Shown: positions 29,570 through 51,006, numbered from the stretch's first letter. The stretch: 64,000 nucleotides of DNA from Methanobacteriota archaeon (GCA_016207515.1 JACQPN010000022.1:129549-193548); one strand, 5' to 3'. Notes: generated by a model from the sequence alone, not told the origin. Made by a program: numbers and translations.

Positions 29570-29832
29570 GGGACGTTTTCTTGGCACCGCCGCATCGGTG
29601 TCGTCAAGTCGGGCCCTTTGGGCAGAATGTGCCTTTCCGCCATGCGGCGGTTCTTGGGATTTGAACCGGTCCCAGTCGTCGTCACGGCTTAAGAAGGGGC
29701 TGTTTGGAAAGGCCGCCGTGCCATTGGCCGAAGCGCCCGTTGGACGTTTTTCACAACTTGTGGGGTTTATCTCAGCGCGACATCTCAACGTTCATCGGTG
29801 TCCGATTGACGACGAGACCTTCAGCCGCGAAC

Positions 29833-35021: not shown

Positions 35022-36341
35022 TCATGGACTCGGGCGCGCGCCAGGGATCTCAAACCCGAAAAGGGCACCCTTGCCTTCGCCGTCGCTTTGCGCCCAGACG
35101 TGCCCGCCGTGCTGTTCGATGATGCCCCGGGATATGAAGAGACCGAGGCCAGTGCCGGAACGCGCCCGACCCATGTGGTGGAGTTGGGAAAACGGTTGGA
35201 AAAGTAGGTCGAGTTTTTCAGGCGGTATCCCTGCACCGTCGTCTTTTACCCACGCGACGACGGACCTGGCTCGTCGTTCCGCGTGGAGTACGACGTGGCC
35301 GCCTCGCGGCGTGAACCTCAAGGCGTTGGAAACGAAATTGTCAAGGACCTGCGTGAGCCGTCTCGGGTCGGCGGAGATCACGAGATGCTCGGGGGCCTCG
35401 ACGTCGAGACTCACGCCGGACTTCCCCGCCGGCTCCTTGTAGAGTTCGAGGGTCTCGCGAAGCACTGTGCCGACGTCGGTCGGCTCAGCGTCGAGTCTCA
35501 AGCGCCCTGATTGCAAGCGTGACGCGTCCGACAGGTCCTCGACGAGGGACGTGAGGCGGCGGAGGTTGCGTTCGAGCACCTCCAACGAACGCCTCTGGCC
35601 GGCCGACAGCGGGCCGTAATCGCCGCCGGAGAGAAGCGCCAACTGGATGTTGATCGGAGTGAGAGGCGTGCGGAGTTCGTGGGAAGCCGTGTTCATGAAC
35701 GTGTTCTTGAGTTCCGCGAGCTCCTTGGTGCGCGCGACCATCTCCTCCGATTGTCGTGCCCTTGCCTTTTGCGCCACGATCCCGGCCCGAAGGCGATCGC
35801 CGAAACCCACAAGGAGGAGGATCCCGACTCCGGAGGCGACCGCGAAGGAGAAGATGCGGAAAGCGACGAGCGCCAGGGGGCTGGGCGTAGGGGCCAATGT
35901 GAGATTGAGGGCGACGAGGACGTTTCCGGCGATCCAACTGGCGGCGGCCACTGCATACAGGAATCGACCCGAGGCAAGGGTCAGTGCGAGACACAAGAAG
36001 ACCATCGGCACGAGGATGACGGCAGGCGAACCCGGAAGGACGATCGAGTACGCAATCGCGCCTCCAAACAGTCCGACTCCCAGGATTGTGAGCGCCGCGC
36101 CAACCCGTTCCTTATCCAAGTCTCGTCTCGCGATCACAAAGCACGCGCCGACCGCGATGGCCACCGCCGCGCCCTGGAACCATATGGGGTCTCCCGTAGA
36201 AAGACCGGCGGCCACCTCGATGATTCCAACTATGAAACCGACGAGACTGAAACCAAGGAGCGCGATTGGAAGGTTGATTCCCGACGCGAGCTTCACAACT
36301 GCCCGAGGAAGACCATGGTCTGCCGTCACCCGTTCGCTCAT
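35022..36341 (-). CDS. membrane-bound sensor histidine kinase (about 6 TM plus HisKA plus HATPase_c)
   Basis: H-box FMNTASHELRTPLTPI; N/G boxes ...GTGLGLFISRGIIEQHGGHVWAQSDGEGKGALFGFEIP; own TATA-like box (GATTTAAGGG on the minus strand) about 45 nt upstream. Confidence 0.8.
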   Translation of the reverse strand: MSERVTADHGLPRAVVKLASGINLPIALLGFSLVGFIVGIIEVAAGLSTGDPIWFQGAAVAIAVGACFVIARRDLDKERVGAALTILGVGLFGGAIAYSIVLPGSPAVILVPMVFLCLALTLASGRFLYAVAAASWIAGNVLVALNLTLAPTPSPLALVAFRIFSFAVASGVGILLLVGFGDRLRAGIVAQKARARQSEEMVARTKELAELKNTFMNTASHELRTPLTPINIQLALLSGGDYGPLSAGQRRSLEVLERNLRRLTSLVEDLSDASRLQSGRLRLDAEPTDVGTVLRETLELYKEPAGKSGVSLDVEAPEHLVISADPRRLTQVLDNFVSNALRFTPRGGHVVLHAERRARSVVAWVKDDGAGIPPEKLDLLFQPFSQLHHMGRARSGTGLGLFISRGIIEQHGGHVWAQSDGEGKGALFGFEIPGARPSP

Positions 36342-36407
36342 TTACGTGCCGGTCTTCCTTTGGCCACGACCACCTTTACATCTTGACCGAAACCCTTAAA
36401 TCTTGCT

Positions 36408-38219
36408 TCACGTCAGGATGAACGCGAACGTCACGTACGTGAAGAGCACCATGATGAAGCTGTGGCGTAGGCCCATTACGGCGCGCCCGGATTCCATGAT
36501 GCCGGCCACCACACCGTTACCCACCGCTTGGACGAGCGTTGCCACGAAATAGAAGGTGCGGTACTCGTCGACGCTTATCTTTCCGACGCTCAGACCGGCG
36601 AGCTGGACGCTGGACCCTCCGCCGACGCCGGCCGTCGCTTGCGCGATCTGGGGGACGAACGTCCCGTAAAGCGTCCCAGCGATGCCAAGGAAGACGAGGA
36701 ACGCGATGTAGATGATGGCCGTGTAAAGAAGCATCGACGTCGCCCTCTCGGTCTCAAGGTTCTTTATCTCCCGCGCGTCGCGCGCGGCCGCAAGGAGGAC
36801 GTCCGTCACGTTTCCGCCTGTTCGCGACGCTTCAAGGATGAGTGCCACGGCCCGTTCGATGAGCGGGGTCTTCGCCCTTTCGCCGAAGCGCTCCAGCGCA
36901 TCATCGAAGGCGACGTTCCAGCTCAACTGGTCCGCCATGCGGACGATCTCGGGTGTCAGGGCCCCGTATTCCCCCTTCGAGGCGATCTTCACCGCGGCCG
37001 GGAGTGTGAGCCCGGCCTTGCGGCTTGCCGCCAGGTCTCGAAGGAAATCGGGGAAGCGTTCCTCGAGCCGTTTCACGCGGCCGCGTCGCGACGCGGCGTA
37101 GAACCCGTATGGCCCGATGAAGACGAGGATGGAGAACGTGAGGAAGTCGAGCCAACGCGTGGTCGGGATGCCAAGAAGAGCTATGCCCGCAAACAGTGCG
37201 CCTGCGGTCGCAAGGAGGACCCCGCCAAGAAGACCCGAGATCGCAAGGAGGAGGAGGCCCGTGCCGGTCTCCGTTTCCGTCGGGACCTTGTAAAGCGGCG
37301 TCGAAGGCGCCCGGGCCAGCCTGAACGAGGCGACGACGCTCGCGATGAGGACGAGGACGACGAACCCGAAGACCCCGAGCAGTACGGAATTGCGCGGGAT
37401 CTCTTGGAGTATAGCGACGACACCCACCCCGAAGACGAGGAGGAGCAAGACGACGAGGAAGAGAAGGGCGAACGCGGTGACCGCCGGGAACGTGACCGCG
37501 GAGGCACGCGACAGGCCTGTGGTCGCTCCGTAAGTCTCGCGTCGTTCCGTGAAGACGCTGTAGATGGTCGGCAGCGAGCGCGCGATGAAAAGGGTGAGGC
37601 TGAAAGTCACGTAGCCGGCGAGAAGGAGAAGCGGCGAATCACCTGGGTTGAGAGTGAGAACACCGACGACCGAACCACCGACGGAAGAGGCCCAGAATGC
37701 GGCCGCCGCAAGGACAAGCGTGAGGCCGAGGCCGACGATCTGGAACGGCCCCTCAAGGCCTGTCGAGATGCGTTCCGGCGGGCTTTTCAGGGAGAAGAAG
37801 TGCGCGGCGGCGGAATCAAGCGCCAATACGGCGACGAGGATGGTCGCGATGCGCAGTATGGGCGTGGAGGGGACGCTTGCACCCGTGCGAGTGAACAGGC
37901 CGGCGACGATGACCGTGATGGAGAAGAGCGCGAGGAGGTTGAGTAGGACCGCGGACGACTTGAGCGGGCTCCAATAGCGTGACAGCTCGCGGCGCACGTA
38001 GGGCGTCGTCGGTCTTTTCTGCTCCAACGCCTCGATGCCGCGCCCGAGTTGGATCGTCGCCACGTTCACGACCAACCCGGCGACCGAGAGGAGGATCCCG
38101 CGAGCGTAGGTCGCGTCCGTGTTCGCGATCACGGCGCCGGCGACCGTAAGGAGTGTGGCGAGGACCAGGCCTGCAAGGAGGAGCGCTTCCCGGGTCTTTC
38201 GCTCGATGGCCAACTTCAC
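36408..38219 (-). CDS. type IV pilus/archaellum platform protein, FlaJ/TadC-like second half (T2SSF domain) with an unusual ~370-aa multi-TM N-terminal extension
   Basis: T2SSF-type segment FPDFLRDLAASRKAGLTLPAAVKIA...TGGNVTDVLLAAARDAREI; start overlaps the upstream gene (ATGA). Confidence 0.7.
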   Translation of the reverse strand: MKLAIERKTREALLLAGLVLATLLTVAGAVIANTDATYARGILLSVAGLVVNVATIQLGRGIEALEQKRPTTPYVRRELSRYWSPLKSSAVLLNLLALFSITVIVAGLFTRTGASVPSTPILRIATILVAVLALDSAAAHFFSLKSPPERISTGLEGPFQIVGLGLTLVLAAAAFWASSVGGSVVGVLTLNPGDSPLLLLAGYVTFSLTLFIARSLPTIYSVFTERRETYGATTGLSRASAVTFPAVTAFALLFLVVLLLLVFGVGVVAILQEIPRNSVLLGVFGFVVLVLIASVVASFRLARAPSTPLYKVPTETETGTGLLLLAISGLLGGVLLATAGALFAGIALLGIPTTRWLDFLTFSILVFIGPYGFYAASRRGRVKRLEERFPDFLRDLAASRKAGLTLPAAVKIASKGEYGALTPEIVRMADQLSWNVAFDDALERFGERAKTPLIERAVALILEASRTGGNVTDVLLAAARDAREIKNLETERATSMLLYTAIIYIAFLVFLGIAGTLYGTFVPQIAQATAGVGGGSSVQLAGLSVGKISVDEYRTFYFVATLVQAVGNGVVAGIMESGRAVMGLRHSFIMVLFTYVTFAFILT

Positions 38220-39049
38220 GCCTCCGGGGTGATGGCCTTGATCGTCACGGCGAAACCCGCCTGCGCGACGGGTAACAGTATGAGCATCATGATGTACCCG
38301 ATCGTGATGGCGGACCGGCCGCCGCTCCCGAAGGCCGTCATCACAGTGAGCAGCACGATGAGGAGGAGCGGTGCCGCGACGACCACGGTCACGTAGGACT
38401 CGGCGAGGACCGCGAGGCTCTCGATGAACTTCTTCTGGTCCTGCCTGTTCTCGTAGACGTACTGCTCGCTCTTCGTGAGGAAGTAGTTCTTGAGATCGGA
38501 CCCTGATTGGATGGCCGTGATCGCCCCTTGGAGAAGGTCCTGGAATTTGACCGAGGGGCTCCGATCGATCGCCGCCGTGAGGGCCGTGACGATGTCGCGG
38601 CCCAAGATCGTGAGGTCGCGGCTGATGTAAGCGGATTCGTTCGCGACCTCACCGTAGATGGGTTGGCGCGCAAGGCTTCCGAAGATCTTGTCCGGGGTTA
38701 TCCCGGCCGAGGCGAGGGTGGCGATGTAGTTGAGAGCGTAGGGGAGCTTCGCGTCGATGTCGCGGGCCCTGCCCGAGGCGCGGATGTCGGGGACCACGAA
38801 CGTGAGAAGGTAGATGGTGAACGCGAGGACCATCGGAAGGGGGACGAGGACCGCGAAGACGACGGGCGGCACGACCACGCTTTTCGCGAAGACCAGGATC
38901 GCGAGGATCAATATCGGAAGCAGGCTCGCGGCGAACGCGATCACCATGTTCATGTAGGAATAGCTGAGGTAGAGCTCGGGCCGCAAGTCGATCTGGGCCT
39001 TTTGGAGCGAGAAGCGCAGGTGCACGTTGCTACGCGCACTACGTTGCAC
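38216..39049 (-). CDS. type IV pilus/archaellum platform protein, FlaJ/TadB-like first half (single T2SSF domain, 277 aa)
   Basis: KLPYALNYIATLASAGITPDKIFGSLARQPIYGEVANESAYISRDLTILGRDIVTAL matches the T2SSF/GspF domain; 3 TM. Confidence 0.7.
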   Translation of the reverse strand: MQRSARSNVHLRFSLQKAQIDLRPELYLSYSYMNMVIAFAASLLPILILAILVFAKSVVVPPVVFAVLVPLPMVLAFTIYLLTFVVPDIRASGRARDIDAKLPYALNYIATLASAGITPDKIFGSLARQPIYGEVANESAYISRDLTILGRDIVTALTAAIDRSPSVKFQDLLQGAITAIQSGSDLKNYFLTKSEQYVYENRQDQKKFIESLAVLAESYVTVVVAAPLLLIVLLTVMTAFGSGGRSAITIGYIMMLILLPVAQAGFAVTIKAITPEA

Positions 39050-39139
39050 CGAGCGCCCGAAGACGCGGTAGGCGAAACGCTGGTACTTAGTCGGTGGAAT
39101 GGTCAGCGCCCCCGCTTGTTACCGCGCCGTGTGGCGGCA

Positions 39140-41014
39140 TCAGGTCCCCTTGCCCTGCCCAGGCCGCGGCCTTGACGTCTCGGCCACCCGGGCAAGAAGC
39201 GTGTCGGGCGTCGAGTAGTATGCGGACACGATGTCGCCGACGTCGCGGACGTTACGTATGCCCTTCTCCACCATCCATTCGATTATCCGAGTCCTTCGAT
39301 CCCATTCGGTCTCAAGGTCGGCCCTGCCGAGGCTCTTCGTCTCCATGATCGCCTCGAGGATCTGGCTTTTCCCCATGTACTCGTGCTTGTCGGCCTTCGA
39401 GTCCCATCGGAAGACGGTGTTCGTGAGGAGATCGCCCGTGTCGGGGTCGATCCCCACTATCTCGACGACCTCGCGGATACGCCGCACGAGCCGTTGGTTT
39501 ATCCTCACCTGGATCTGGATGGCGATGGCATCAAGGGTCTGCAGCATCAATCGTGGCACGTTGATCGGCTCGTTCTCAAGACGATACACGGCGGATTGTG
39601 CGCTGTCGGCGTGCATGGTGCTGTAACAGGCGTGGCCCGTCGCCATCGCCTGGAAGAGGGTGAGGGCCTCCGCGCCTCTCACCTCGCCGACTATCAGGAA
39701 CTCGGGGCGTTGACGAAGCGCCGCCTCCAAGAGCTTGTACATGTCGACCGCTCCCGACGGGCGGCCTTGCACTATGTCGCTCCCGAAGCCTGCCCGCGTT
39801 AGACCTGCGATCCAGTTCTCGTGCGGCAGGTTCACTTCGCGCGTGTCCTCGATGGAGACGACCTTCTTCTGTGGCGGGATGAACATGCTCGCGGCGTTGA
39901 GGCTCGACGTCTTGCCGCTCGCGGTGCCGCCGGCGAAGACCATGCTGAACCCCTCTTCCATCGCCAGCCAGAAATAAGCGGCCATGGAGGCGCTGAAGGT
40001 CCCAAGGCGCACGAGATCCGGCGGTGTGAGGGGGTCGGACCTGAACTTACGGACCGTGAACGACGAGCCACGCGTCGTCACTTCGCGAGACAACGTCGCC
40101 TGGAGACGGCTCCCGTCGGGAAGAGTCGCGTCGAGGATCGGCTCGGCGATGGAGATGTGCTTCCCGCAGCGCTGCGCGAGGCGGATGACGAAGGAATCGA
40201 GCACGGTCTCGTCCTTGAACATGAGGTTCGTCTTGATCGACTCGTACTGGCGGTGGAAGAGGTAGATGGGGATGTTCGGTCCGTCGCATGAGATATCCTC
40301 GATGAGGGGGTCTCGCAACAGGACGTCGACGGGGCCGTAGCCGAGGAAGTCCCGGAGAAGGAAATACTGCACCCTCTGTTTCGACACCTCGTCGACCAGC
40401 ACCGAATGATCGACAATCGCCTGGTCGATCGCGTCCATGAGGAACTGTTCCCAATCGGTCTCGTCCTCGAAGCGGCCGGGAAGCGTCCGGATCAACGTGT
40501 CGCGCAGGAATCCCAGGACGTCCTCTTCCGGCTGCGTGAGGACGGGTTCAATGGCCTCGTAGAGGTATTGGTTACGCGCCTTGTCGTAAAGGATCCGGAT
40601 GTAGGCCTTGCCTTCCTGGATGGTCGAGAACTCCACTTGGGCGAGCTTCTCTCGGTCGATCTCCGGGATCTCCGTGATGGGGCGGTCCGTCGACACCCCG
40701 AGTTTGGGCATCAGGTCCTTCACGTACTGCTGGTGCTTCACCGCCTCGTCGCGCACCTTCTGGTGCTTCGTGACCTTTGATTGGACGGCGCGCGAGCGTT
40801 TCTCGAAGTCCTTCTGCTCCGAACGTTCGGCCGCGGCCTTCGCCTTCTGGTCGTGCTTCAGCTCCTTGAGGATGTCGCGCGTCTCGCGGCTTGCGACTTC
40901 GGGGGGCGGGGTCTCGGGTGGCTCGACCTCGGGAGCGGTGAACTCGCCCGTGGGCTTCTTCTTGGGCCGGGGGAGACCTTCGCCGGCGTCCTCACCCTCC
41001 GTCTCTTCGCTCAA
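39140..41014 (-). CDS. flaI: FlaI/TadA/VirB11-family secretion ATPase with a ~110-aa charged N-terminal extension; TTG start with a GAGGTGA SD
   Basis: Walker A FAGGTASGKTSSLNA; Walker B EFLIVGEVRG; His box ATGHACYSTMHADS; 624 aa. Confidence 0.85.
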   Translation of the reverse strand: MSEETEGEDAGEGLPRPKKKPTGEFTAPEVEPPETPPPEVASRETRDILKELKHDQKAKAAAERSEQKDFEKRSRAVQSKVTKHQKVRDEAVKHQQYVKDLMPKLGVSTDRPITEIPEIDREKLAQVEFSTIQEGKAYIRILYDKARNQYLYEAIEPVLTQPEEDVLGFLRDTLIRTLPGRFEDETDWEQFLMDAIDQAIVDHSVLVDEVSKQRVQYFLLRDFLGYGPVDVLLRDPLIEDISCDGPNIPIYLFHRQYESIKTNLMFKDETVLDSFVIRLAQRCGKHISIAEPILDATLPDGSRLQATLSREVTTRGSSFTVRKFRSDPLTPPDLVRLGTFSASMAAYFWLAMEEGFSMVFAGGTASGKTSSLNAASMFIPPQKKVVSIEDTREVNLPHENWIAGLTRAGFGSDIVQGRPSGAVDMYKLLEAALRQRPEFLIVGEVRGAEALTLFQAMATGHACYSTMHADSAQSAVYRLENEPINVPRLMLQTLDAIAIQIQVRINQRLVRRIREVVEIVGIDPDTGDLLTNTVFRWDSKADKHEYMGKSQILEAIMETKSLGRADLETEWDRRTRIIEWMVEKGIRNVRDVGDIVSAYYSTPDTLLARVAETSRPRPGQGKGT

Positions 41015-41030
41015 GTCGTTTCACCTCGCT

Positions 41031-41060
41031 GGAATTTAAGCGGGCCTGGTAAATGAAAAT
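41031..41060 (-). promoter_or_regulatory. TATA-like elements (minus strand TTTTCATTTACC / CTTAAATTCC) 20-45 nt upstream of flaI
   Basis: AT-rich patch in the 154-nt spacer, suggesting flaI has its own promoter separate from the pilin genes. Confidence 0.3.
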
Positions 41061-41168
41061 GCCGGATTACTGACGGGGCCGAAAGAGTGGCCGCCGATGG
41101 TTTTTCCGGAACCCCACGAGGGGTCGCCGCGCGTCGCGCCCATGGGCCCCCGACGCGGTGTTTGCCGA

Positions 41169-42038
41169 TCAACCCCGGACCTCCACCCGGATGTCCCCGG
41201 TGATCGTCGTCCAACCGGTGGCCGCGTTCATCACGTAGAGATCCACCGTATCGACGTCGTTCGTGTCGCTGTCGTAGCAGAAATGCTGCGTCGACGCCGT
41301 GCAGTCCGCGATGTTCTCTCCCGTCAGGTTCGCCGCCCCGAAAGTGCGGTTGAACGCCGACCGCCACGAATACGCGGCGACATTGTCGATGAGAAGATGC
41401 GCGTTACCGGTGGCCTGCGTCGTCCGGGTGATCCCGGTCACGGTCGAGAGGACCTGGATGTCCCCGCCGGAGGCGACGTCTTGCGAACCTCCGCCGATGG
41501 TGGGGGCCTGGACGGTGACGTAGAGTTTCCCGGCGCCAGTCCGTTGCGCCGTGATGAGACTTCGAAGGTCAACGTAGCTACTGCGCGACTGGTTCACTTC
41601 AAGCGCCCCCAATACGTACCGGAAAGTCTGTGCTTCGAAGTGGGACGGGCTGGTCGTCATGGCCATGGCGCCCGATGCAGTGAAGACGGTCGTGGCCCCG
41701 TTCCCGACGGTGATCGTCGGAGCCGTCTCGACGCGGATGCTTCCGGACGATTGCCCAGCGCCGAGGATCGGAAGGCCCGCCGTGCCGGCCGGGAGGTTGC
41801 GGCTGAACGAGCGGTTGTTGAGCTCGCGCGAGATGTGGTCCTCGGCCGCGTCCGCCCATCCGCTCATCGCGGTGCGCACGGAATCGCTGTGCGACGCCTC
41901 CCAGTCGGCGGCCCACGCGGGGACGAAATTGAGGTTGAAGACGGTCAGGAACGCCACGATGCCGGCGATGACGAGGATCGCGCCGAGGACGTTGACGACG
42001 GCGGAGTCTCTGCGGTGAAGCATACCGCGTCGAGTCAT
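41169..42038 (-). CDS. pilin-like protein (289 aa) with a class-III-signal-like N-terminus
   Basis: Start ATG overlaps the TGA of the upstream giant gene (ATGA). N-terminus MTRRGMLHRRDS-AVVNVLGAILVIAGIVAFLTVF; S/T/G-rich beta body. The listed ORF 41169..42326 carries an extra R/H-rich 96 aa that was rejected. Confidence 0.55.
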   Translation of the reverse strand: MTRRGMLHRRDSAVVNVLGAILVIAGIVAFLTVFNLNFVPAWAADWEASHSDSVRTAMSGWADAAEDHISRELNNRSFSRNLPAGTAGLPILGAGQSSGSIRVETAPTITVGNGATTVFTASGAMAMTTSPSHFEAQTFRYVLGALEVNQSRSSYVDLRSLITAQRTGAGKLYVTVQAPTIGGGSQDVASGGDIQVLSTVTGITRTTQATGNAHLLIDNVAAYSWRSAFNRTFGAANLTGENIADCTASTQHFCYDSDTNDVDTVDLYVMNAATGWTTITGDIRVEVRG

Positions 42039-45000
42039 CAGACCACCTTCACGAATATGCGGAACGCGTCGTTCACGTCGGCGACCGCCGCGGTGACCGT
42101 CTCGGAGTTGGTCGACCGCGTCTCGACCAGGAACTCGTACAGCGCGCCCGCGTTGTTTGGGGGCGTCATGATGACGATGATGTGTGTCGTGTTGTCGGCG
42201 ACGCCTCGCACGGAGAAGTCGATCCACCCCGGGGCCCAGGGTGTGGGGTCGCGGATGTTCCAGTTCGCCGTACCGTTCGAGGCCCCTTGGGGCGGTACAG
42301 AAACGGCCCACCCGATGGGGATCCAAAGGCGCGTGTTGGCGGTGATGGCGTCAGCCCGCATGGTCCAACGGAACGCGACTTGTTGGGCCGTCGCCGCGGT
42401 CCGGTTCTGGAAGCCCGTGACCGTGTCGGTCCCGTCGAATCCGAAGATGTTCAGGTTTGCCCCGGTCGGGTTGTGGCGGACGTTCTGGGAACCTCCGGTG
42501 ATGGAGATGGAAGGCGAGCTGAAATTGACTTGGGCGAAAAGCTCCGTAGAGCCGGCCGTTGTGGTCGAGGCCGTCGTGAAGGACAGCATGAAGATCTTCA
42601 TGCTGTATGCTTTGAGCGTCACTGCGGCCGCCGGATTGCAGGTGACGTCGCTTCCGCCCGAACCGGTGAGAGAACAGGCTTCAAGGTCGTCGTCGGTCCC
42701 GCCCGCGACGCTCGCCGTGGTGAAGAAATTGTTCGTTGCGAGCAATGGGGTGATGAAGAGGCGGACGAGATCGATGTCGTAGTCGGACGGAGTGGGATTC
42801 ACTATCGTGAGGCCGATCTGCACGATGTTGGCGTCCTCCTGCTCCGCCGTGTAGACGAGCCTCAGCTGCACCGAGTTGACCGAGTCCCCGTTTTCGGCGA
42901 ACACGTTCCCTTTGTTCGTGACGGTCACCGCGAGTCGTGCCGCCGTCGTGTTGGTTGCGGATGCGGTGAGGACGGACTTCGCGCCTCCTCGCCAATCGAC
43001 GTATTTGAAGTTCGCGGAAGTCGACGCCGTGCCGATCGTCACGGTCGTGATGGGCGTCGTTCCATCGGTCGCGTTGAGGAAATAGCCGATCGTGCTGTTG
43101 GTCTCCAGCGTTATGGTGAGGGGAGGCGAAACGGGCGAAGCGGCCCCGCCACCGTCCGTCGTCCGCAGCGTGACCGTGTAACTCGTCGACACCATCCCCG
43201 GTAGAAGCGTCGTGTTGCTCGTCGTGAATTCCAGATAATACGGCGGCGGCGGCCCGATCCCGTCCCCGGAGCCGCCGCTCGACGGTGGAGTGCCGGTGAT
43301 CGTTATCGGCGTCATGGCGGCAGTCGTGTTCGTCGCCACGGCGAGAAGCATCGACGTCGCCCCTCCTTGCCCGTCCTTGTACTTGAAACTGGCCGTCGTC
43401 GAGGCGGTCCCGATGGTGATGCTGTTGATGATCGTCGTGCCATCGGTGTCGTTGAGGAAGACACCGCGCGTGCTGTTCGTGGAAAGGTAGATGGTGAGCG
43501 GTGGAGCGTACGGCGAGGAGGCGGTGCCCGTCGAATTCTTCAAAGTGATGGTGAAACTCGTGGTGACCGTGTCCTTGGCGACACTCGACACCACGGTCGT
43601 GTAGTCGAGGTAATACGGCGGCGGTTGGAAGAACACGGGCGCCGGGTTGGTCCCCGTGATGCTCACGGCCGTTGCGACGCTCGTCACGTTCGGGGCGAAG
43701 GCCGCAAGGACCGTCCGCGTCCCTCCTGAGTAGTCGATGTACTTGAACTGGGCGGAGGACGAGCCTGTCCCGAGGGAGATCGTGGTGATGAGCGTCGTCC
43801 CGTCCGACGCGTTGAGGAAGTAGCCCGTGGTGCTGTTCGTGAGAAGTGTGATGGTCAACGGCGGGGAATCGGGGGAAACCGCGGAACCGAACGAGTTCCT
43901 CAAAGTCAATGTGTAGTTCACGGACACGGTCGCCCTCGCCAGCGTCGACACGACGCCGCTGAACTGCAGGTAATTCCACGTATAGGGGCCGGGGTTTGTC
44001 CCCGTTATCGCGATCACCGCGGCGGCCGGCGTCGTGTTCGCTGCGTACGCCGTTATCACCGTGTTGGAAAGCGCCGCGTAGTCGATGTACTTGAAACTCG
44101 CGGTGCTTGCCGCGGCCGCGATGGTCACGTGGGTGATGAGCGTGGTCCCATCGGCGTTGCTTACAAAGAAGCCGGAAGTGCTGTTCGACGCAAGCGTGAC
44201 TATGAGTTCGGTAGGCGTGGTGACGGTAGAGCCCGTCGTGTTCTTCAAGGTCAACGTGAAAGTCGTGGACGCGGTTCCCCGGGCGACGCTCGCGGGTGCT
44301 GTCGAGAAATTGAGGTAGTTGGACGGCGGCTGGATGAAGGGCGGACTCGGGTTGGTCCCCGTCACTGCGATGACGGTCGCTTCCGGTGTCGCATTGTGCG
44401 TCACCGCCATGATAACAGATTGGGTCCCGCCGTTGTAATCGACGTACTTGAAATTGGCGCTCGAAGCGGCGGCCGCTATCGGCACCGTGAGTATGCGCGT
44501 CGTCCCGGCGAGAGCGTCGAGGAAATATCCCGATGTGCTGTTCGTCACGAGGGTCACGTTGATCTCCGCCGGGGCGGTGACCGTCGCGCCTGTCGTGTTC
44601 TTCAGAGTTACGGTGAAGTTGGTGCTCGCCGTCCCCCGGGCGACCGTTGCGGGGGCCGTCGTGAAGTTGAGGGCGAGGCTTGGCGGCTGGATGAACGGCG
44701 GCGACGGGTTCGTCCCCGTGACGGCGATCTGGTGCGCCGCCGCTACAGTGTTGTTGGCGACCGCGACGATCGCGGGGTGGCTTCCCGCGTCGTAACTAAT
44801 GAACTTGAAGTTCTGGCTAGGCGTCGATGTGGGGATGACGACGCCCGCTATGCGCACCGTCGGGTCCGTGTCGTTGACGAAGTACCCCTGCGTGGAGTTC
44901 GTGATGAGCGTCACGTAGAGGTCGTTTGACGGTGCGGTCGCGTGCCCCGTGCCGTTGAGCAGGGTGACCGTGAAACTCCCCGAGGCCGTCCCCCGCGCGA

Positions 45001-46165
45001 CCGTCACCTGTGTGGCGTTGAATTGAAGGTAGTTCGGCGCGGAGCCGCCGCCTCCACCGCTGCCGCCAGTTATGGCCGTCGTCGTGAACGTCCGGAACGC
45101 TTCGGCCGTGTTGTTGTTCCCGAGCGCGTCGACCGCCGTCACCTTGTAGTGGTACTGCGTCCCCGCGGTGAGCGAAGTGAGGCTCAGGCTGTGGGAAGTG
45201 GTCGAGGTCCCGGTCGCCCACCTTCCAGTGAGCGAAGGCGTGGGGCCGAAGGTCACGTTCGACGATGCCGCCTCATCGGTGGTGAAGGTGATCGTCGCGC
45301 TCGTCTGCCCCGGGGAGCCGGATGAGAGGGAACTGATGGTGGGCGCGACACCATCCACCGAGACGACGCTTGCGGTGCCCGCGAGGAGGTTGCCTGCGAC
45401 GTCACGGGTGCCGGTCGGAGTACCTATGCGGTTGACGGTCGGCACGTCGCTCGTCGCGAACGAGGCGGTCGTGAATTCCGCGGCGGAACCATTTCCCAAC
45501 AGTACGACGGCTGATATCGCGACCGTCGGCACGCTCACCGTGAAGTCCGCCTTGTCGATCGTGCGCAGGGGTTCCGTGAAATTCACCTGGATCGTCGTGG
45601 TGGACGTGGTCCTTGCCGACTGGAGCTGCGGGGCGGTCGTATCGGATTGTTGCGCCGTCGCCCCGCTGAGGACGACCGCGCCCGTGGATGTCTGAAGCAC
45701 GAGTATCGAGACGGCTTTGCCGGGGAGAGTGGAATCGGTGTAGCGCACCTGGTCGCCGGTGACGAAGTCGGCGCCGGCGTTCTTCGACACGCCGGAGGGT
45801 GTTACCACACTCCAAGCTGGGTCGGCCGCGGCCAATCGTTCGCCAACCGTCACGCGCGTGGGCACGCCGTTTATCTCGACCGTCACCCCGAGCACCATCA
45901 GGGGGATCGGCGAGCCGCCCCTGTGCTCCAAAACCAGGCGGTCGTTGTTGGTCGGCAGGACGAAAGTCTCGATGACGGCGTCTGTTGGCGAAGTCGGCGG
46001 GGGAAGGCTGAGGAGCAGATACATGAAACCAGCCGCGAAGACCACAGTGATGGCGACCAGAAGCACGCTTCCAAGGATGTCCGTGACGCCCGCGTCGGGG
46101 CCGGCAGGGCGTTGGAGCGCGGAGCGCGTCGGTCGCCCCTCGGGCGCGCTACGTGCCGTGGTCAT
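42038..46165 (-). CDS. giant pilin-like adhesin (1375 aa): class III signal peptide plus archaeal pilin/archaellin-type N-terminal helix, an Fn3-like domain, six ~115-aa tandem repeats and a C-terminal beta domain
   Basis: Leader ...RPAGPDAG-VTDILGSVLLVAITVVFAAGFMYLL (arch-pilin N-term type). Fn3-like APTISSLSSGSPGQTSATITFTTDEAASSNVTFGPTP...YHYKVTAVD. GGGGGTG SD 9 nt before ATG 46165. More than 80 NxS/T sequons. Confidence 0.75.
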   Translation of the reverse strand: MTTARSAPEGRPTRSALQRPAGPDAGVTDILGSVLLVAITVVFAAGFMYLLLSLPPPTSPTDAVIETFVLPTNNDRLVLEHRGGSPIPLMVLGVTVEINGVPTRVTVGERLAAADPAWSVVTPSGVSKNAGADFVTGDQVRYTDSTLPGKAVSILVLQTSTGAVVLSGATAQQSDTTAPQLQSARTTSTTTIQVNFTEPLRTIDKADFTVSVPTVAISAVVLLGNGSAAEFTTASFATSDVPTVNRIGTPTGTRDVAGNLLAGTASVVSVDGVAPTISSLSSGSPGQTSATITFTTDEAASSNVTFGPTPSLTGRWATGTSTTSHSLSLTSLTAGTQYHYKVTAVDALGNNNTAEAFRTFTTTAITGGSGGGGGSAPNYLQFNATQVTVARGTASGSFTVTLLNGTGHATAPSNDLYVTLITNSTQGYFVNDTDPTVRIAGVVIPTSTPSQNFKFISYDAGSHPAIVAVANNTVAAAHQIAVTGTNPSPPFIQPPSLALNFTTAPATVARGTASTNFTVTLKNTTGATVTAPAEINVTLVTNSTSGYFLDALAGTTRILTVPIAAAASSANFKYVDYNGGTQSVIMAVTHNATPEATVIAVTGTNPSPPFIQPPSNYLNFSTAPASVARGTASTTFTLTLKNTTGSTVTTPTELIVTLASNSTSGFFVSNADGTTLITHVTIAAAASTASFKYIDYAALSNTVITAYAANTTPAAAVIAITGTNPGPYTWNYLQFSGVVSTLARATVSVNYTLTLRNSFGSAVSPDSPPLTITLLTNSTTGYFLNASDGTTLITTISLGTGSSSAQFKYIDYSGGTRTVLAAFAPNVTSVATAVSITGTNPAPVFFQPPPYYLDYTTVVSSVAKDTVTTSFTITLKNSTGTASSPYAPPLTIYLSTNSTRGVFLNDTDGTTIINSITIGTASTTASFKYKDGQGGATSMLLAVATNTTAAMTPITITGTPPSSGGSGDGIGPPPPYYLEFTTSNTTLLPGMVSTSYTVTLRTTDGGGAASPVSPPLTITLETNSTIGYFLNATDGTTPITTVTIGTASTSANFKYVDWRGGAKSVLTASATNTTAARLAVTVTNKGNVFAENGDSVNSVQLRLVYTAEQEDANIVQIGLTIVNPTPSDYDIDLVRLFITPLLATNNFFTTASVAGGTDDDLEACSLTGSGGSDVTCNPAAAVTLKAYSMKIFMLSFTTASTTTAGSTELFAQVNFSSPSISITGGSQNVRHNPTGANLNIFGFDGTDTVTGFQNRTAATAQQVAFRWTMRADAITANTRLWIPIGWAVSVPPQGASNGTANWNIRDPTPWAPGWIDFSVRGVADNTTHIIVIMTPPNNAGALYEFLVETRSTNSETVTAAVADVNDAFRIFVKVV
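42950..45050 (-). repeat. six in-frame tandem repeats (about 345 nt / 115 aa each) inside the giant pilin-like gene
   Basis: Repeat consensus (Y/N)YL(N/Q)F(T/S)...VARGTAST.FT.TLKN.TG...TL.TNST.G.F...DGTT.I....I...S..F.KY.DY...; a 16-aa junction (AVTGTNPSPPFIQPPS) is identical in repeats 1 and 2; antisense pseudo-ORFs recur with the same period. Confidence 0.7.
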
Positions 46166-46232
46166 CTTCACGCGCACCCCCATCTGGTGCGAGTCACTAG
46201 TCCAACCATCCAACGCCACGCCTTCGGCGCTT

Positions 46233-46243
46233 GTATTATAAGA
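46233..46243 (-). promoter_or_regulatory. TATA-like (TGTATTATAAG / minus strand CTTATAATACA) about 70 nt upstream of the giant pilin-like gene
   Basis: Strongest TATA-like sequence in the 133-nt spacer between the antiporter and pilin genes. Confidence 0.35.
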
Positions 46244-46298: not shown

Positions 46299-47588
46299 TT
46301 AGTCGGCAATCGTCGATTCATGCTGCGGCGCGTCCCCCGGCGAAGGTCGCGCGGGCGTCGGATCGGGACCGCGAGGGCCCTTTGGTTTGCTCCATTCAAG
46401 AAAGAACACCGAGCCGCTCGCGAACACGTTGGAAAGGAGGATCACCAAGAACGCGACCCCCTGAAACAGTTCCGGGGAAGGACTCGTGAGGCCCCGGGCA
46501 GCGGGATACGCCGCCATCGCCGCGGCCGCGAGGCCATTCGGGAGCATCACGGCAAGAAAGAGACGGTCCTGCCGGAGCCTCGGAACCATGGCGGCGACAC
46601 CGATGGCCGACACGTAGCGGGCAAGGGCCTTGACCAGGATCGCGGCCGTCGCAAGGATAACCACGGGCGCCGTGAAACCGCTGAGGTCGAGGATCAAACC
46701 CATGAACACGAAGAAGAAAGTCCGGACGAAGAACGTGATCTCTGCCTGCGACGCGTGCAGGTTCTCGCGGAAATCAGCTGCGGTCTTCACCTTCAACAAC
46801 GGCTCAAGCGCATGGGAGTTGCCCAGAATGACCCCGAAGACGAGCGCCGCGAAAGCGCCGCTGCTCTGCGCTCCCTCCGTCGCTACATAGAGGACGAGGA
46901 CCGCGGCAAGGGTCAGGAGATAGTTGTACTTCGGGGCGCGCAACCAATGCAACACGAGGATCCAAACCACCGCGGCGACCGTTGCAAAGAGCGCCGAGAT
47001 GGTAAAACTCCCGAAAAAGTCGCGGGCGAAGAAGCCGATGTCGAGCCCGCCGCCTTCGACGATGACCTGTATGATGGCGAGGGAAACGATGATCGTCAAC
47101 GCGTCGTTCAGCGAAGATTCGAGGGACAAGACGGTCCGCCCGGCGTCGCTCATCCGGAGTTGTCGCACGAGCGACATGATCACGGTCGAACTGTTGCCTC
47201 CGAGGATCGCGCCGAGGAGGAGCGCCGGCAGCGGCTCCCATCCGAGATAGAAGGCGGCTCCGGCGATCGCCCCCATCGTGAGCGCGAAAGCGAGGAGCGT
47301 GTAGGCAAGGGCCGGGGCCGCTTGCTTCAAGACGACGCGGTAATCGAGCGCCATGCCGCCCTCCACAAGGAGGATCACCAGCACCAGGGTCCCGAAGAAA
47401 GGGTTCAGGTCCCGCATGCTCGTAAGCACGTCCGCTCCCAACACATGGAAGACCGGTCCGATTAGGAGACCGACAAGGAGCAGGATCACGATGTCGGGGA
47501 TCTTGAAACGTTGGAAGCCTAGGGCCGCTGCGAATCCGATCGTGATGATCGCGGAGATGAGGATGAACGCGGTGGCGACGTCGACCAC
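46299..47588 (-). CDS. Na+/H+ (cation:proton) antiporter, CPA1/NhaP type
   Basis: 429 aa; 11-12 TM; CPA1-like motifs (LLVGLLIGP, SLNDALTIIVSLAI, ATEGAQSSGAFAALVFGVILGN). Confidence 0.8.
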   Translation of the reverse strand: MVDVATAFILISAIITIGFAAALGFQRFKIPDIVILLLVGLLIGPVFHVLGADVLTSMRDLNPFFGTLVLVILLVEGGMALDYRVVLKQAAPALAYTLLAFALTMGAIAGAAFYLGWEPLPALLLGAILGGNSSTVIMSLVRQLRMSDAGRTVLSLESSLNDALTIIVSLAIIQVIVEGGGLDIGFFARDFFGSFTISALFATVAAVVWILVLHWLRAPKYNYLLTLAAVLVLYVATEGAQSSGAFAALVFGVILGNSHALEPLLKVKTAADFRENLHASQAEITFFVRTFFFVFMGLILDLSGFTAPVVILATAAILVKALARYVSAIGVAAMVPRLRQDRLFLAVMLPNGLAAAAMAAYPAARGLTSPSPELFQGVAFLVILLSNVFASGSVFFLEWSKPKGPRGPDPTPARPSPGDAPQHESTIAD

Positions 47589-47812
47589 GCGGCCGCAATA
47601 GTATGAGCCGGGTTAATGATTGCGGATTCGAGGGGTGACGGCGCCCCGGATCAAAGCGCGAACGCGCCAAATCGCAAGCATTCATGTGGCCGGTCGACGG
47701 AAAGTAGAAAGGGGGAGGCGCGCATCTCACCGATAGTCCTAGCAACGAGGAGGTTTGTCTCCTGGCCTTGGCGGCGCAGGGTAGATTCGTGTGAGGACCA
47801 AGAGGGACCGCC

Positions 47813-49042
47813 ATGGACTTCTACCAGCACGGACTCACGACACTCCATCGCTTCGAGGGAGAGACGGACGATTCGGCCACACGGACGCTTGTCGCAAGGC
47901 ATTCGCAATCGCGGCCCGTGGCCCTAGTCCTACCCATGGTCTATTCAGAATTGGACCGGCCGGCGCTTCTCGGCATTCGCCAAGGGCTTCAAGGCGCCGA
48001 CTACCTCAATGAGGTGGTAGTCGCCCTAACGGCTTCGAGTGAAGGCGAGGCGAGCCGTGTTCGCGACTTTTTCGACGGCCTCCCGATGCCCACCCACGTC
48101 GCATGGTGCGAAGGGCCGGAGACCGCCGCGGTCTGCAAACGCCTCACGGCGGCCGGCTTCGACCTCGGGGGTTTCCAAGGGAAAGGACTCGCGGTATGGT
48201 TGGGTTTGGGGATCGCCGCGGAATCGAACTACGCCATCGTCGTCCACGATGCGGACATCGAGCACTATGAGCCGCGTATCATCGAGCGGCTCGCCCTTCC
48301 GCTCATAACCCCGAACCTTGATTTCTATTTCTCCAAAGGCTACTATGCCCGCGTCGACCAGGGTCGCATGTACGGGCGGGTGACCCGCCTCTTACTGTGG
48401 CCCATCATGGATGCCCTGACGGCGGTCCTTGGAGAACCCTCCCCGTTCCTCACATATCTACGGCAATTCCGCTACCCGCTGTCGGGCGAGATGGCGCTCA
48501 CCGCAGACCTCGCGCGTAACGTCCGCATGCCGACCGATTGGGGCCTCGAACTCGGCCTCCTCGGTGAAGTCTATCGGAACACCGCGCCCAAGCGGAAATG
48601 TCAGGTCGATCTTGGCTACTACAGCCACAAGCACCGCGAACTAGGCGCCGACGCCGGGGAAGGACTTCAACGCATGGCCCTCGACCTTGCCACCGCCCTC
48701 TTCAGGCTTCTCGCTTCGTTCGAGGGTCTGCGGGTCACGCCGGACTTCCTCGTCACGTTACGAGCCGCGTACAGGCGCGAAGCGCAAGACGCGATTCGAA
48801 GGTACAACGCGGATTGTGTGGTGAACGGCATGGACTACGACCGCCACAACGAGGAATCGATGGTCGAGACGTTCGAACCGTTGATCGAGATGGCCGGGGC
48901 CCAGTTCAGCCGCAAACCGACGAGCGACCAGATCGGCGAGTGGTTGCGGGCACTCAGTGCCGCGCCGGACGCCGCAAGCAGCCTCCGGGCCGCCGCAGCG
49001 TTGAACGCGGGGTCGCTCCACGCCCCCTCGACGATGAAATGA
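47813..49042 (+). CDS. GT-A fold glycosyltransferase, tentatively mannosyl-/glucosyl-3-phosphoglycerate synthase-like
   Basis: 409 aa; DAD (DxD-like) motif in IVVHDADIEHY; Rossmann-like N-half; the call is tentative. Confidence 0.45.
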   Translation: MDFYQHGLTTLHRFEGETDDSATRTLVARHSQSRPVALVLPMVYSELDRPALLGIRQGLQGADYLNEVVVALTASSEGEASRVRDFFDGLPMPTHVAWCEGPETAAVCKRLTAAGFDLGGFQGKGLAVWLGLGIAAESNYAIVVHDADIEHYEPRIIERLALPLITPNLDFYFSKGYYARVDQGRMYGRVTRLLLWPIMDALTAVLGEPSPFLTYLRQFRYPLSGEMALTADLARNVRMPTDWGLELGLLGEVYRNTAPKRKCQVDLGYYSHKHRELGADAGEGLQRMALDLATALFRLLASFEGLRVTPDFLVTLRAAYRREAQDAIRRYNADCVVNGMDYDRHNEESMVETFEPLIEMAGAQFSRKPTSDQIGEWLRALSAAPDAASSLRAAAALNAGSLHAPSTMK

Positions 49043-49099: not shown

Positions 49100-49825
49100 T
49101 CACCTGATGCGTCCGGCCGCGAACGATCCCGTGAGGTCGAACCCTTGATTGCTGAAAGTGTACTCCACCCAGCCACGGTTCTCGGTAAGGCCCACGCCCT
49201 CGGCCTTGAGGACGAATTTCCCTTGCTCCGACTTGAACTCGATGACGCCTTCGACGAGGTGCTTCACAAGCTGCACCTCGTTTTCCGCGTGGATACCGGC
49301 TCCCAAGACGAGGAGGCTCGTGGCCCCCGCGCGCTTCGTCTTTCCAAGGAAGACCTGGAGGAAACGGAACGTCGTCTGCGGGTTCGTGTACGCCATGATC
49401 GTCGACACCGAATCGACCACTAGGCGGTGCGCCGGGTGTTCCCCGATGATCTTCCGTTGCGCGTTGTTCACCGCGAGGCTCACCGCGTTAAGGTTCACGG
49501 GGCTGTCGACGAATTCGGCGTTCTGTAGAGCGTCCTCCGCGCCGATGGTCTTGCTGTATGTGTCGACGAAGTGCACGAGGTTGTCCTTCTCGTACTTCGC
49601 GAAGTCCTTGTCGAGCGCCAGGAACTCCTTTCGAGCGTCCGACGCGGCGGAATCGGTGAGGACGATTATTCCGGGCACGCCCTGCTTCATGCCGGCGAGG
49701 AGAAAGACCCGGGCGACCATCTCCTTGCCGATGAAAGGCGCCCCGTAGATGAGGGTGGAGGATCCTCGTGGGAGCCCGCCGTCGAGAAGTTCATCGAGCC
49801 GCTTCACGCCGGTCGCGAGCTTCAC
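49100..49825 (-). CDS. single-domain KaiC-like/RecA-superfamily protein with a non-canonical Walker A (GAPFIGKE: Glu in place of Ser/Thr); GTG start overlapping the upstream stop (GTGA)
   Basis: KaiC-like order: LDELLDGGLPRGSSTLIYGAPFIGKE, Walker B HRLVVDSVSTI, C-terminal GVIEFK...ENRGW. Only the C-terminal 241 aa of the listed 465-aa ORF are used. Confidence 0.65.
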   Translation of the reverse strand: MKLATGVKRLDELLDGGLPRGSSTLIYGAPFIGKEMVARVFLLAGMKQGVPGIIVLTDSAASDARKEFLALDKDFAKYEKDNLVHFVDTYSKTIGAEDALQNAEFVDSPVNLNAVSLAVNNAQRKIIGEHPAHRLVVDSVSTIMAYTNPQTTFRFLQVFLGKTKRAGATSLLVLGAGIHAENEVQLVKHLVEGVIEFKSEQGKFVLKAEGVGLTENRGWVEYTFSNQGFDLTGSFAAGRIR

Positions 49826-50919
49826 GCCGTCACACCTCCCTCGAGGATCTGCTCTAGGAGCTCCTTCAGCACGTTCCTCGTGGATTGCCTCTCGGTCCCG
49901 ACGAACCCGACGCACTTCACGTACTCGGGGGCGCCGACCAGGACCGCGACGCGGTCGGGGGTCAATGCCTCCGGCATGTCCTGCTTGGACGCCGCGATTA
50001 TCGCGGGAAGCCCTTGCTTCCAAGTGAGTTGCATCATCTCGCGGGCACGAGGGAAGGAATCGGGGTCGGTCGAGTCGACGACGACGATGACGCCGAGCGC
50101 CTGCCCGGCGATTGTGCGAAGGATCGGGTCGAACCTTTCCTGCCCGGGGGTCCCGAAGATGTCGGCCGAAAGGCCGTCGATGAGGACGTGCCCGTGGTCC
50201 ATCGCGACGGTCGTTCCCACCCGGTTTACGCTCACGGCGCTGTCGGACACCGTGTGGATGAACGTGGATTTTCCGGCATGGAACGGCCCCGTCACGACGA
50301 TCTTCGGGATGTAGACGACCACACCGCCGGGACGAAGGACCTTGTAAAGGCGGGGCCGTGTCTCGATGCCAGTTTTCCAGCGGGCGCGCTCCAGCGCGAA
50401 GTATTGGCCGAAGCTCACCCGGGCCTCGACGTTCTTGAGCGTCACCACGGCATCGAAACCGTCGAGGACGGCGAGTAGGTCGGCGTCGTAAGGCCACTTC
50501 GTGAACCCGGCGGCGCCGAGCGGGAAGCGTCTCATCGCCGCGAGGATCCGTGGGAACGCGACGCGCAGTTTCTCGGGGCTAGCGGTGTCTGCGAGCGTCG
50601 AGAGTGATTCGATGATCAGGAGTGCCTCCGGGTTCTCCACGGCCGCGCGCTCAAGGAGGTCGGCGAAGGACTCCGGGTTCGTGGGGTCCTCAAGCATGTA
50701 CTTCGCCTCCGAGACCGCGCCCATGAGCCCAGAGAAGGCGTCGACGAACGAGAGCCTCTCCCCTTCGAGCGAGATGTCGAACCCGTGGTCGTCCATCGAT
50801 TTGACGACCCCCGACGGCGACCGGGCCGTGACGACGTAGACGACCCTGCGCCCATCGCCCATCCAGGAGGCGGCCGCCTGATAGAGGAACGCCTCGGCTT
50901 CGACGCCGGGGTCGTTCAC
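49822..50919 (-). CDS. fusion protein: P-loop-less KaiC-like N-terminal domain plus a C-terminal MglA/COG2229-like small Ras-type GTPase
   Basis: N-terminal domain VVYVVTARSPSGVVKSMDDHGFD...LLIIESLSTL...ERARWKTG (KaiC-like, no GxxxxGK[ST]). C-terminal domain G1 GPFHAGKST, G3 FGTPGQERF (PGQ as in MglA), G4 SKQD. Confidence 0.7.
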   Translation of the reverse strand: MNDPGVEAEAFLYQAAASWMGDGRRVVYVVTARSPSGVVKSMDDHGFDISLEGERLSFVDAFSGLMGAVSEAKYMLEDPTNPESFADLLERAAVENPEALLIIESLSTLADTASPEKLRVAFPRILAAMRRFPLGAAGFTKWPYDADLLAVLDGFDAVVTLKNVEARVSFGQYFALERARWKTGIETRPRLYKVLRPGGVVVYIPKIVVTGPFHAGKSTFIHTVSDSAVSVNRVGTTVAMDHGHVLIDGLSADIFGTPGQERFDPILRTIAGQALGVIVVVDSTDPDSFPRAREMMQLTWKQGLPAIIAASKQDMPEALTPDRVAVLVGAPEYVKCVGFVGTERQSTRNVLKELLEQILEGGVTA

Positions 50920-51006
50920 GAACGCAAGGGTCGAGGCAAGAGGGATTGGTCCAAGGAGTTTGTCGAGCTGCTGGATACCCAGCGCGTGGCCCTCGGTCGC
51001 GGCGCC

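Follow-up and report, generated by a model that had tools for sequence, protein, structure and literature searches.

A probable archaeal adhesion pilus locus encoding a giant modular pilin and a bipartite platform

Studies of type IV pili in archaea and bacteria have provided several frameworks into which a new pilus locus can be placed. Euryarchaeal pili of the 'clade 2' type possess a pair of tadC-like genes in many genomes, and their PilA-family pilins are often encoded in trans, with an all-beta minor pilin of 250-550 amino acids (aa), arCOG02911, alongside (Makarova, Koonin and Albers, 2016; PMC4858521). Pilin sets are exchanged modularly, and the systems have links to KaiC-like ATPases and Roadblock proteins; the Roadblock family arCOG02603 receives a one-line mention (PMC4858521). 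The platform of Cuniculiplasma is divided between CdiPFa and CdiPFb, and the gene for its major pilin lies 500 kb away from the machinery (ISME J, 2025; PMC12448462). Bacterial modular pilins, the largest of 860 aa, have been argued to be tip-located adhesins, in a survey covering the IPR012902 N-terminal pilin domain and bacterial proteins only (Raynaud et al., 2021; PMC8179133). Here we describe a locus that fits these three frameworks. It lies in a 64,000-nucleotide (nt) stretch of DNA from a Methanobacteriota archaeon (GCA_016207515.1 JACQPN010000022.1:129549-193548), referred to below as the window.

A preliminary description of the locus, made from the sequence alone, had listed six minus-strand genes. 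Open reading frame (ORF) calling over the 64 kb window recovered all of them, with the same order and coordinates and with Pfam matches throughout: a 1375-aa Pilin_N protein, a 289-aa DUF7289-like protein, a secretion ATPase, two T2SSF platform genes and a histidine kinase. An automatic gene map based on GC3 was misled by antisense frames, in which the third codon position is shared, and served as a guide only. The features of the locus, in the direction of transcription, are as follows (TM, transmembrane; AF2, AlphaFold2).

46233..46242, minus strand: TATA-like element CTTATAATAC, which includes TTATAATA at 46241-46234; motif match only
42038..46165, minus strand: giant modular pilin gene, 1375 aa (1381 aa from the ATG at 46183), 141 kDa, pI 5.1; Pfam Pilin_N
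45641..46165, minus strand: pilin module of the giant, residues 1-175, with a class III signal, a helix (24-52) and a beta-sandwich head with EHRGG and GDQVRY motifs
45071..45640, minus strand: Ig-like (176-276) and Fn3-like (277-365) domains of the giant, residues 176-365; Pfam, AF2 and Foldseek
42899..45040, minus strand: six tandem repeats of ~118 aa, invasin/Big_1-like, residues 376-1089; repeat alignment
42041..42898, minus strand: C-terminal domain of the giant, residues 1090-1375, with a single Cys pair (1164, 1176)
41169..42038, minus strand: 289-aa DUF7289-like, pilin-like protein with a putative class III signal, ...RRDSA/VVNVLG (the slash marks the cleavage point, here and below)
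41015..41168, minus strand: spacer of 154 nt with A/T-rich elements and a Shine-Dalgarno sequence, GAGGTGA, at 41027-41021
39140..41014, minus strand: secretion ATPase, 624 aa, PilB/GspE-like, of the euryarchaeal pilus type; T2SSE E=5e-39 (Pfam)
38216..39049, minus strand: short platform half, 277 aa; T2SSF at 106-233, FlaJ profile positions 13-249
36408..38219, minus strand: long platform half, 603 aa; T2SSF at 392-516, FlaJ profile positions 196-536, C-terminal TM helices
35022..36341, minus strand: membrane histidine kinase, 439 aa; 6 TM helices, HisKA and HATPase_c (Pfam)

We consider it likely that the locus is a euryarchaeal-type clade 2 (PilB/PilC-like) adhesion pilus cluster whose giant modular pilin sits at the filament tip. 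The preliminary description had proposed a type IV pilus-like locus with a bipartite platform, an extended ATPase and a giant pilin-like adhesin, and the domain, profile and fold matches support that outline. The evidence, and the alternatives that bear on it, are discussed below.

The giant pilin and its partner

As judged from sequence and structural models, the N-terminus of the giant is a whole PilA-family pilin module and more than a hydrophobic anchor, because small pilins align with it end to end and solved pili match it in both profile and fold. The Pilin_N domain (PF07790) scores 32.5 bits against a Pfam cutoff of 25.2. A profile of the first ~170 residues, searched exhaustively against 1.84 billion representative proteins, found 1515 relatives, many of which are complete pilins of 140-160 aa that align from end to end with residues 1-175. 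(This search superseded a word-indexed search with the pilin-module alignment, which gave two matches.) Common to the giant and the small pilins are an x-[AG]/[VA]-[ST]-[DEP]-x-[VI]-G cleavage motif, the hydrophobic helix, EHRGG, and GDQ/GE-x-x-Y (here the slash separates alternatives). The profile also reaches solved, filament-forming archaeal pilins: that of Haloferax volcanii (8FJ5, E=1.2e-14), Natrinema PilA2 (8GI2, E=3.6e-10) and 9MYG. In the AF2 model of residues 1-176, which has a mean predicted local distance difference test (pLDDT) score of 88, a disordered leader is followed by a 29-residue helix (24-52) and a beta-sandwich head, and 8FJ5 is the sole fold match in the PDB at E<1e-3 (Foldseek). 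The module was modelled alone, as Foldseek matches to a 372-residue three-domain model were dominated by generic tandem Ig/Fn3 proteins. The putative cleavage site, ...PDAG/VTDILGS between residues 26 and 27, parallels that of the Haloferax pilin (D-A-G/V-T-D-I-L-G in the giant, D-S-A/V-S-P-V-I-G in 8FJ5). The class III signal and archaeal pilin helix of the preliminary description thus hold, the cleavage as a prediction. An identical giant product was called on an independent assembly (P0001), and four full-length relatives of 1103-1199 aa (P0002-P0005) were found.

Beyond the pilin module the giant carries a long arm. Its first part matches Pur_ac_phosph_N (E=2.4e-6), fn3 (E=3e-3, residues 279-362) and Big_12 (E=0.017) in Pfam. 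The AF2 model of the 372-residue stretch has an Ig-like beta-sandwich at 181-271 and an Fn3 beta-sandwich at 277-361 (pLDDT 81-91), and the best Foldseek matches of the region are tandem Ig/Fn3 proteins. An Fn3-like domain had been described earlier without a position; Pfam and AF2 locate it at residues 277-362. The six repeats, previously given as ~115 aa, are 116-126 aa long and 40-65% identical in pairwise comparison. They match Invasin_D3 below the Pfam threshold (E=0.009), and the repeat region has a homologue in P0008, a Big_1/Invasin_D3 protein (E=2e-42). Pfam and PDB searches with the C-terminal domain, the last ~290 residues, gave no match. More than 80 N-glycosylation sequons had been claimed for the mature part of the giant; the count of N-X-S/T sequons in the giant is 35, which is still an enrichment over shuffled sequences (20 +/- 3.8; none of 2000 shuffles reached 35). 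The repeats hold 27 of the 35, and the pilin module none.

The arm varies among relatives. P0002-P0005 share the first ~370 residues of the giant in alignment, and differ in repeat number and C-terminal modules, a constancy and variability that together give the pattern to be expected of a modular adhesin. The C-terminal domain of the giant is common to P0002 and P0003. In P0004 (L005 5044-8643) and P0005 (L003 10001-13561) the C-terminal half is instead made of a different repeat, rich in G-G-T-G and '...LYASGT..LSKLA...APSWGKV'. By sequence comparison this is module swapping on a constant base of pilin, Ig and Fn3 domains.

The giant had been regarded as unusually large for a pilin, and as a subunit of megadalton scale. 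The second point fails on the mass of the polypeptide, 141 kDa. As to the first, about one in three of the best 150 relatives is a Pilin_N protein with a length of 500-2019 aa: among these cluster representatives 68 are at most 200 aa long, 41 are of 500-999 aa and 10 are of at least 1000 aa, the longest having 2019. The giant's own family is rare, with 14 clusters at E<1e-30 and presence in 2 of ~186,000 species genomes. The class of large Pilin_N proteins is, as these searches suggest, common in metagenomes of uncultured archaea.

The partner gene is tightly coupled to the giant gene. The overlap of its ATG with the giant's TGA, noted in the preliminary description, is confirmed: the junction reads TGATG, and the two codons share one base. 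Along its whole length the 289-aa protein shares 38-40% identity with the 292-aa partners of giant homologues in two related loci, L003 and L005, of which the L005 partner matches DUF7289 and the L003 partner does so only weakly. The pilin-module hidden Markov model (HMM) matches its N-terminus weakly (E=0.025), and a PDB search with the protein gave no match. It may be a minor pilin of the arCOG02911 type.

The secretion ATPase and the split platform

The preliminary description had assigned the ATPase to the FlaI type, with an extension, a TTG start and a GAGGTGA Shine-Dalgarno sequence. The last three features stand: the gene starts at TTG 41014, GAGGTGA lies at 41027-41021, and there is a charged N-terminal extension of ~95-130 aa, which is also present in the 650-aa ATPase of the related locus L008 (67% identical). 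The FlaI identity does not. The NCBIfam FlaI model NF058587 scores 401.7 bits against a cutoff of 550, and the best solved relative is the GspE-like ATPase of A. fulgidus (2OAP, 460 bits, E=8e-137), ahead of Sulfolobus FlaI (4II7, 282 bits); CpaF structures match at E=3e-44. A reading of the locus as an archaellum was rejected: the ATPase is below the ArlI cutoff and nearer to afGspE, and among the ORFs scanned with Pfam and NCBIfam, in a window that was not exhaustively annotated, there was no archaellin and none of the accessory genes ArlF/G, ArlH, ArlC/D/E or ArlX.

The platform is encoded by two genes, each with one T2SSF domain (E=4e-16 in the short half and E=2e-17 in the long half, Pfam), and the halves match complementary parts of the FlaJ profile. 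The multi-TM extension that had been described in the long half is present as ~9-10 TM helices ahead of its T2SSF domain. The family of the long half comprises more than 146 clusters, of ~600-650 aa, many of which match 90-100% of the query. The description of the platform as split into 277- and 603-aa proteins is correct. The overlap between the two genes, given earlier as ATGA, reads GTGA: GCG-TGA at the end of the short gene overlaps GTG-A at the start of the long one, by 4 nt. An alternative gene caller starts the long gene from a TTG two codons later, without overlap.

The 4-nt overlap is the sole point in favor of another view, raised as a caution in the preliminary description, that an error of sequencing or assembly at 38216-38219 has made two genes out of a single FlaJ gene. 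The locus region is 100% identical to two contigs from separate public runs (SRR12113385 and SRR12113390), and the junction is the same in contigs of two separate sequencing runs (100% identity over 7.8 kb and 4.8 kb). In seven related loci the short gene stops at the same place, after a conserved ...PE(A/V/I/S) C-terminus, by way of TGA, TAA or TAG; the restart follows within 1-5 nt, or 22 nt in L003. Split platforms have, moreover, been published (PMC4858521; PMC12448462). Since the junction is the same in independent assemblies and is kept in seven loci with different stop codons, the split is real, and we give an error at this point practically no credence. The same conservation and the same publications mean that the split is not the unusual trait that it was first taken to be.

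The frame of the short half is open upstream of its GTG. Positions 39050-39112 (minus strand) encode TKYQRFAYRVFGRS and hold no ATG, GTG or TTG that could serve as a start; the L008 orthologue has a matching N-terminus, TKYQRAAYRILGPS. There may be a non-canonical start (CTG or ATT), or the N-terminus may have been shortened recently.

Related loci, pilus assembly and its alternatives

Six related loci (L008-L013) were found via the long platform gene. All share the same order, in which a large Pilin_N protein (428-755 aa) comes first and a DUF7289-like one (461-506 aa) second, followed by an ATPase, a T2SSF protein of ~294 aa and another of ~620 aa. In every locus the two genes of the pilin pair overlap by 1-4 nt or stand 3 nt apart. 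In the giant's own family (L003 and L005), the giant and its 292-aa DUF7289 partner are followed by a response regulator and a histidine kinase, and in L003 a divergent T2SSE/T2SSF/T2SSF set lies alongside the pair. Two-component genes flank five of the eight related loci (L003, L005, L008, L011 and L012). They also flank the window locus, where the last gene, 66 nt downstream of the long platform gene, is a membrane histidine kinase as first described. Several features of the locus had been flagged as unusual. With its gene order recurring in L008-L013, its long platform half in a family of this breadth and large Pilin_N proteins common in metagenomes, it reveals no new machine type: the traits that were flagged are conserved, published, or a large case of a common class.

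In pairwise comparison, the pilin pair of the window is nearest to the L003/L005 type (37-40% identity), and the machinery is nearest to the L008 type (67%, 67% and 50%). The window locus is, on these identities, a mosaic of a pilin pair and machinery of different kinship. The spacer between them is 154 nt, compared with gaps of 5-117 nt in relatives. Here recombination may have joined the pilin pair to the machinery genes. The spacer may also contain an internal promoter, the second of the two predicted earlier, by motif match only. The first, at 46233, was overstated: TTATAATA is present as described, ~50-70 nt upstream of two candidate ATGs of the giant gene (46183 and 46165), and it is a motif match only.

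The mosaic bears on the possibility that the N-terminal helix of the giant is an ordinary, uncleaved signal-anchor, and that the giant is a surface adhesin whose gene neighbors the ATPase and platform genes by chance. Pilin pair and machinery have different closest relatives and are joined by the spacer, as this possibility would predict, and no prepilin peptidase turned up among the ORFs of the window. The homology, however, spans the whole pilin head and reaches solved pilins; the giant family and its 292-aa partner adjoin T2SSE/T2SSF genes in L003 as well; and Pilin_N and DUF7289 genes precede the ATPase in six other loci. A chance neighborhood is very improbable on these grounds.

In the tip-adhesin model that we favor, the hexameric PilB/GspE-like ATPase would power the system through a two-polypeptide platform, in which the 277-aa protein is the counterpart of the N-terminal half of FlaJ/TadC and the 603-aa protein that of the C-terminal half, with ~9 extra TM helices. 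A PibD/FlaK-type peptidase encoded elsewhere would remove the class III signals, after which the platform would extract the pilins from the membrane and stack them by their N-terminal hydrophobic helices. One substrate would be the giant, whose PilA module (~27-175) bears an arm of ~1200 aa made of the Ig-like and Fn3 domains, the six invasin-like, sequon-rich repeats and the variable C-terminal domain. The other would be the 289-aa DUF7289-type protein, with its start tightly coupled to the giant's stop. The two proteins probably form a low-copy initiation or tip complex, by analogy with the bacterial modular pilins (PMC8179133) and in view of the gene coupling, with the long arm shown as an adhesin at the filament end. 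The shaft would be built of small PilA-type pilins encoded elsewhere in the genome. The histidine kinase and a Roadblock/GTPase/KaiC-like module encoded upstream, described below, probably regulate the system.

Several observations weigh against this model. The sole Pilin_N gene in every related operon examined is a large one (428-755 aa), so the large proteins could themselves be the main subunit. Neither the 64 kb window nor the flanks fetched for the relatives yielded a small major pilin with the pilin-module HMM. GxGD and multi-TM scans of the window ORFs, with Pfam on the candidates, revealed no prepilin peptidase, in agreement with the preliminary description. The classical FlaFind rule expects a charged residue at -2 of the cleavage site; the giant carries Ala at -2 and Asp at -3. 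The DUF7289 match of the 289-aa protein (E=1e-3, 19 bits) is below the Pfam cutoff of 27. Separately, a 6-TM ORF of 211 aa at 23508-24143 was considered as a peptidase candidate and rejected for want of an A24 signature.

The presence of only large Pilin_N genes in every related operon lends support to two other readings. In one, the giant is the major polymerizing subunit of a 'bottle-brush' filament, with a helical core of pilin modules and a glycosylated arm of ~120 kDa on each subunit. The giant begins with a complete pilin module of the PilA type, which is homologous to major pilins, and its gene is the only pilin gene of its type in the window, as the large kind is alone in all related operons. 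All 35 sequons lie in the arm and none in the module, and a rough geometric estimate does not sterically exclude one radial Ig chain per subunit. Major pilins, however, are usually small, separately transcribed and very highly expressed, as in Haloferax PilA and Cuniculiplasma CdiPB (PMC4858521; PMC12448462). The tight coupling of the giant gene to a second pilin-like gene suggests a 1:1 stoichiometry, and the variable C-terminal modules fit an adhesin better than a shaft protein. We regard a shaft made of the giant as unlikely.

In the other reading no long filament is made: a short pseudopilus or surface array would anchor large glycoproteins in the envelope, in the manner of the Sulfolobus bindosome (BasEF). 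BasEF displays class III signal proteins, large Pilin_N proteins are very common, and the operons hold large substrates only. An envelope role would suit a lineage that may lack an S-layer, and Thermoplasmatales are bounded by a disordered glycoprotein layer (PMC12448462). The machinery does not resemble BasEF closely: with cutoffs of 1000 bits for the BasE model and 1300 for the BasF model, the ATPase scores 187 with the first and the short platform half 36 with the second. The pilin module, too, is nearest to true filament formers. We consider such an array quite unlikely.

The upstream module consists of three genes, which lie 3 kb upstream of the pilin genes (49100-51381, minus strand) and outside the stretch covered by the preliminary description. 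They were assigned with Pfam and NCBIfam.

51007-51381, minus strand: Roadblock/LC7 protein, weakly MglB-like
49822-50919, minus strand: fusion of KaiC-N and a small GTPase (Ras/Arf-like)
49100-49828, minus strand: single-domain KaiC-like ATPase

In L008, L009 and L012 the trio lies immediately upstream of the pilus operon, and in L003 it adjoins the divergent set of machinery genes; of the three genes, L010 has only the KaiC-like one. Trio and pilin genes are contiguous in relatives, and in the window two unrelated genes are inserted between them (46299-49042): a Na+/H+ exchanger on the minus strand and a glucosyl-3-phosphoglycerate synthase-like gene on the plus strand, which scores 441 bits, below cutoff, with the NCBIfam GpgS model. 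The trio may act as a module in the regulation or the polarity of these archaeal pili. In a broader version of the alternatives above, the large Pilin_N proteins of the operon are its principal cargo, polymerized into bottle-brush filaments or into a pilus-anchored coat, and the MglA/MglB-like GTPase-Roadblock pair and the KaiC-like ATPases act as a switch. This version is a long shot. If true, it would be an archaeal counterpart of the polarity-controlled type IV pilus behavior of Myxococcus.

The host is probably an uncultured archaeon of the Thermoplasmatota, to go by the source names (Thermoplasmatota/Thermoplasmata) of the long-platform homologues. The G+C content of the window is ~63%. 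An archaeal rRNA operon occupies 59240-64000 (minus strand), with 16S, tRNA-Ala(TGC) in the 16S-23S spacer, 23S and a linked 5S; the 16S gene is truncated by the end of the window. The contig of L006/L003 (JAJPHT010000012.1, GCA_021325135.1) is titled 'Proteobacteria bacterium Centralia_MAG_189', yet carries an archaeal-type Pilin_N giant and pilus set. It is probably mis-binned or mislabelled.

Other genes of the window include several with surface or signaling features. A 1652-aa ORF (7740-12698, minus strand) has a signal-like N-terminus and no Pfam match at E<=1e-3, and is not a Pilin_N protein by local HMM search. A 471-aa protein (20789-22204, minus strand) with a lipobox-like signal (LAGC) and a PKD domain is a probable surface protein. 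Three tandem paralogous ORFs of ~200-240 aa each (28052-30408, plus strand), in which a single hydrophobic helix at the N-terminus precedes an I-x-Y-N-T-like motif, have no Pfam match; they may be secreted or surface proteins with a common signal type. The region 51545-56205 is rich in signaling genes, with PAS histidine kinases at 51545-52825 and 52915-54735 (plus strand) and a response regulator at 55597-56205 (minus strand).

Comparison with described systems

The locus offers a well-delimited archaeal modular pilin, with a complete PilA-type module, a confident model, a solved homologue and a long Ig-like arm. Experimental analysis of modular pilins has so far been bacterial only, and the largest reported in bacteria has 860 residues (PMC8179133). 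In what are probably Thermoplasmatota, large Pilin_N proteins are encoded in a conserved operon with a bipartite, TM-extended platform, often beside a Roadblock/small-GTPase/KaiC-like module. These genes offer concrete targets for work on the attachment, to surfaces or partners, of organisms that may lack an S-layer, and on the regulation of archaeal pili.

Of the described systems, the clade 2 pili of Haloferax volcanii (PilB3/PilC3 or PilB4) resemble the locus in their PilB-like ATPase, TadC-like platform (often with two tadC genes) and PilA/Pilin_N pilins. They also have an adjoining all-beta minor pilin of 250-550 aa, swapping of pilin sets, and links to KaiC-like and Roadblock proteins. 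In the window, by contrast, the PilA module carries a fused stretch of ~1200 aa made up of Ig-like, Fn3 and invasin-like repeat domains, the C-terminal platform half has ~9 extra TM helices, and the ATPase has a charged N-terminal extension. The lineage, moreover, is probably Thermoplasmatota and not Halobacteria.

The CdiP system of Cuniculiplasma divulgatum, compared by its description, would belong to the same phylum if the assignment to Thermoplasmatota is right. It has split platform halves (CdiPFa/CdiPFb) and a major pilin encoded far from the machinery. It differs in having two ATPases and small pilins, and no giant modular pilin has been described in its operon.

The archaellum (ArlI/FlaI, ArlJ/FlaJ, ArlH) shares the ATPase and platform superfamilies, and the KaiC-like ATPase near the locus recalls ArlH; it scores, however, 19 bits against the ArlH cutoff of 215. 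The Tad pilus (CpaF/TadA, TadB and TadC) likewise has two single-T2SSF platform proteins and a related ATPase. The window pilins, in contrast, are archaeal Pilin_N proteins and not Flp, there is no secretin or other Tad component, and the window ATPase scores 152 bits with the TadA family model against a cutoff of 373.

A parallel for the giant itself is found in bacterial modular pilins such as Streptococcus sanguinis PilB (von Willebrand factor A domain, vWA) and PilC (lectin), CofB and TcpB. In these, too, functional modules are grafted C-terminal to a pilin module, in great variety, and a tip location and an adhesive role are predicted. The bacterial pilin module is IPR012902, whereas that of the giant is the archaeal Pilin_N (PF07790), and at 1375 aa the giant exceeds the largest bacterial example of 860 aa.

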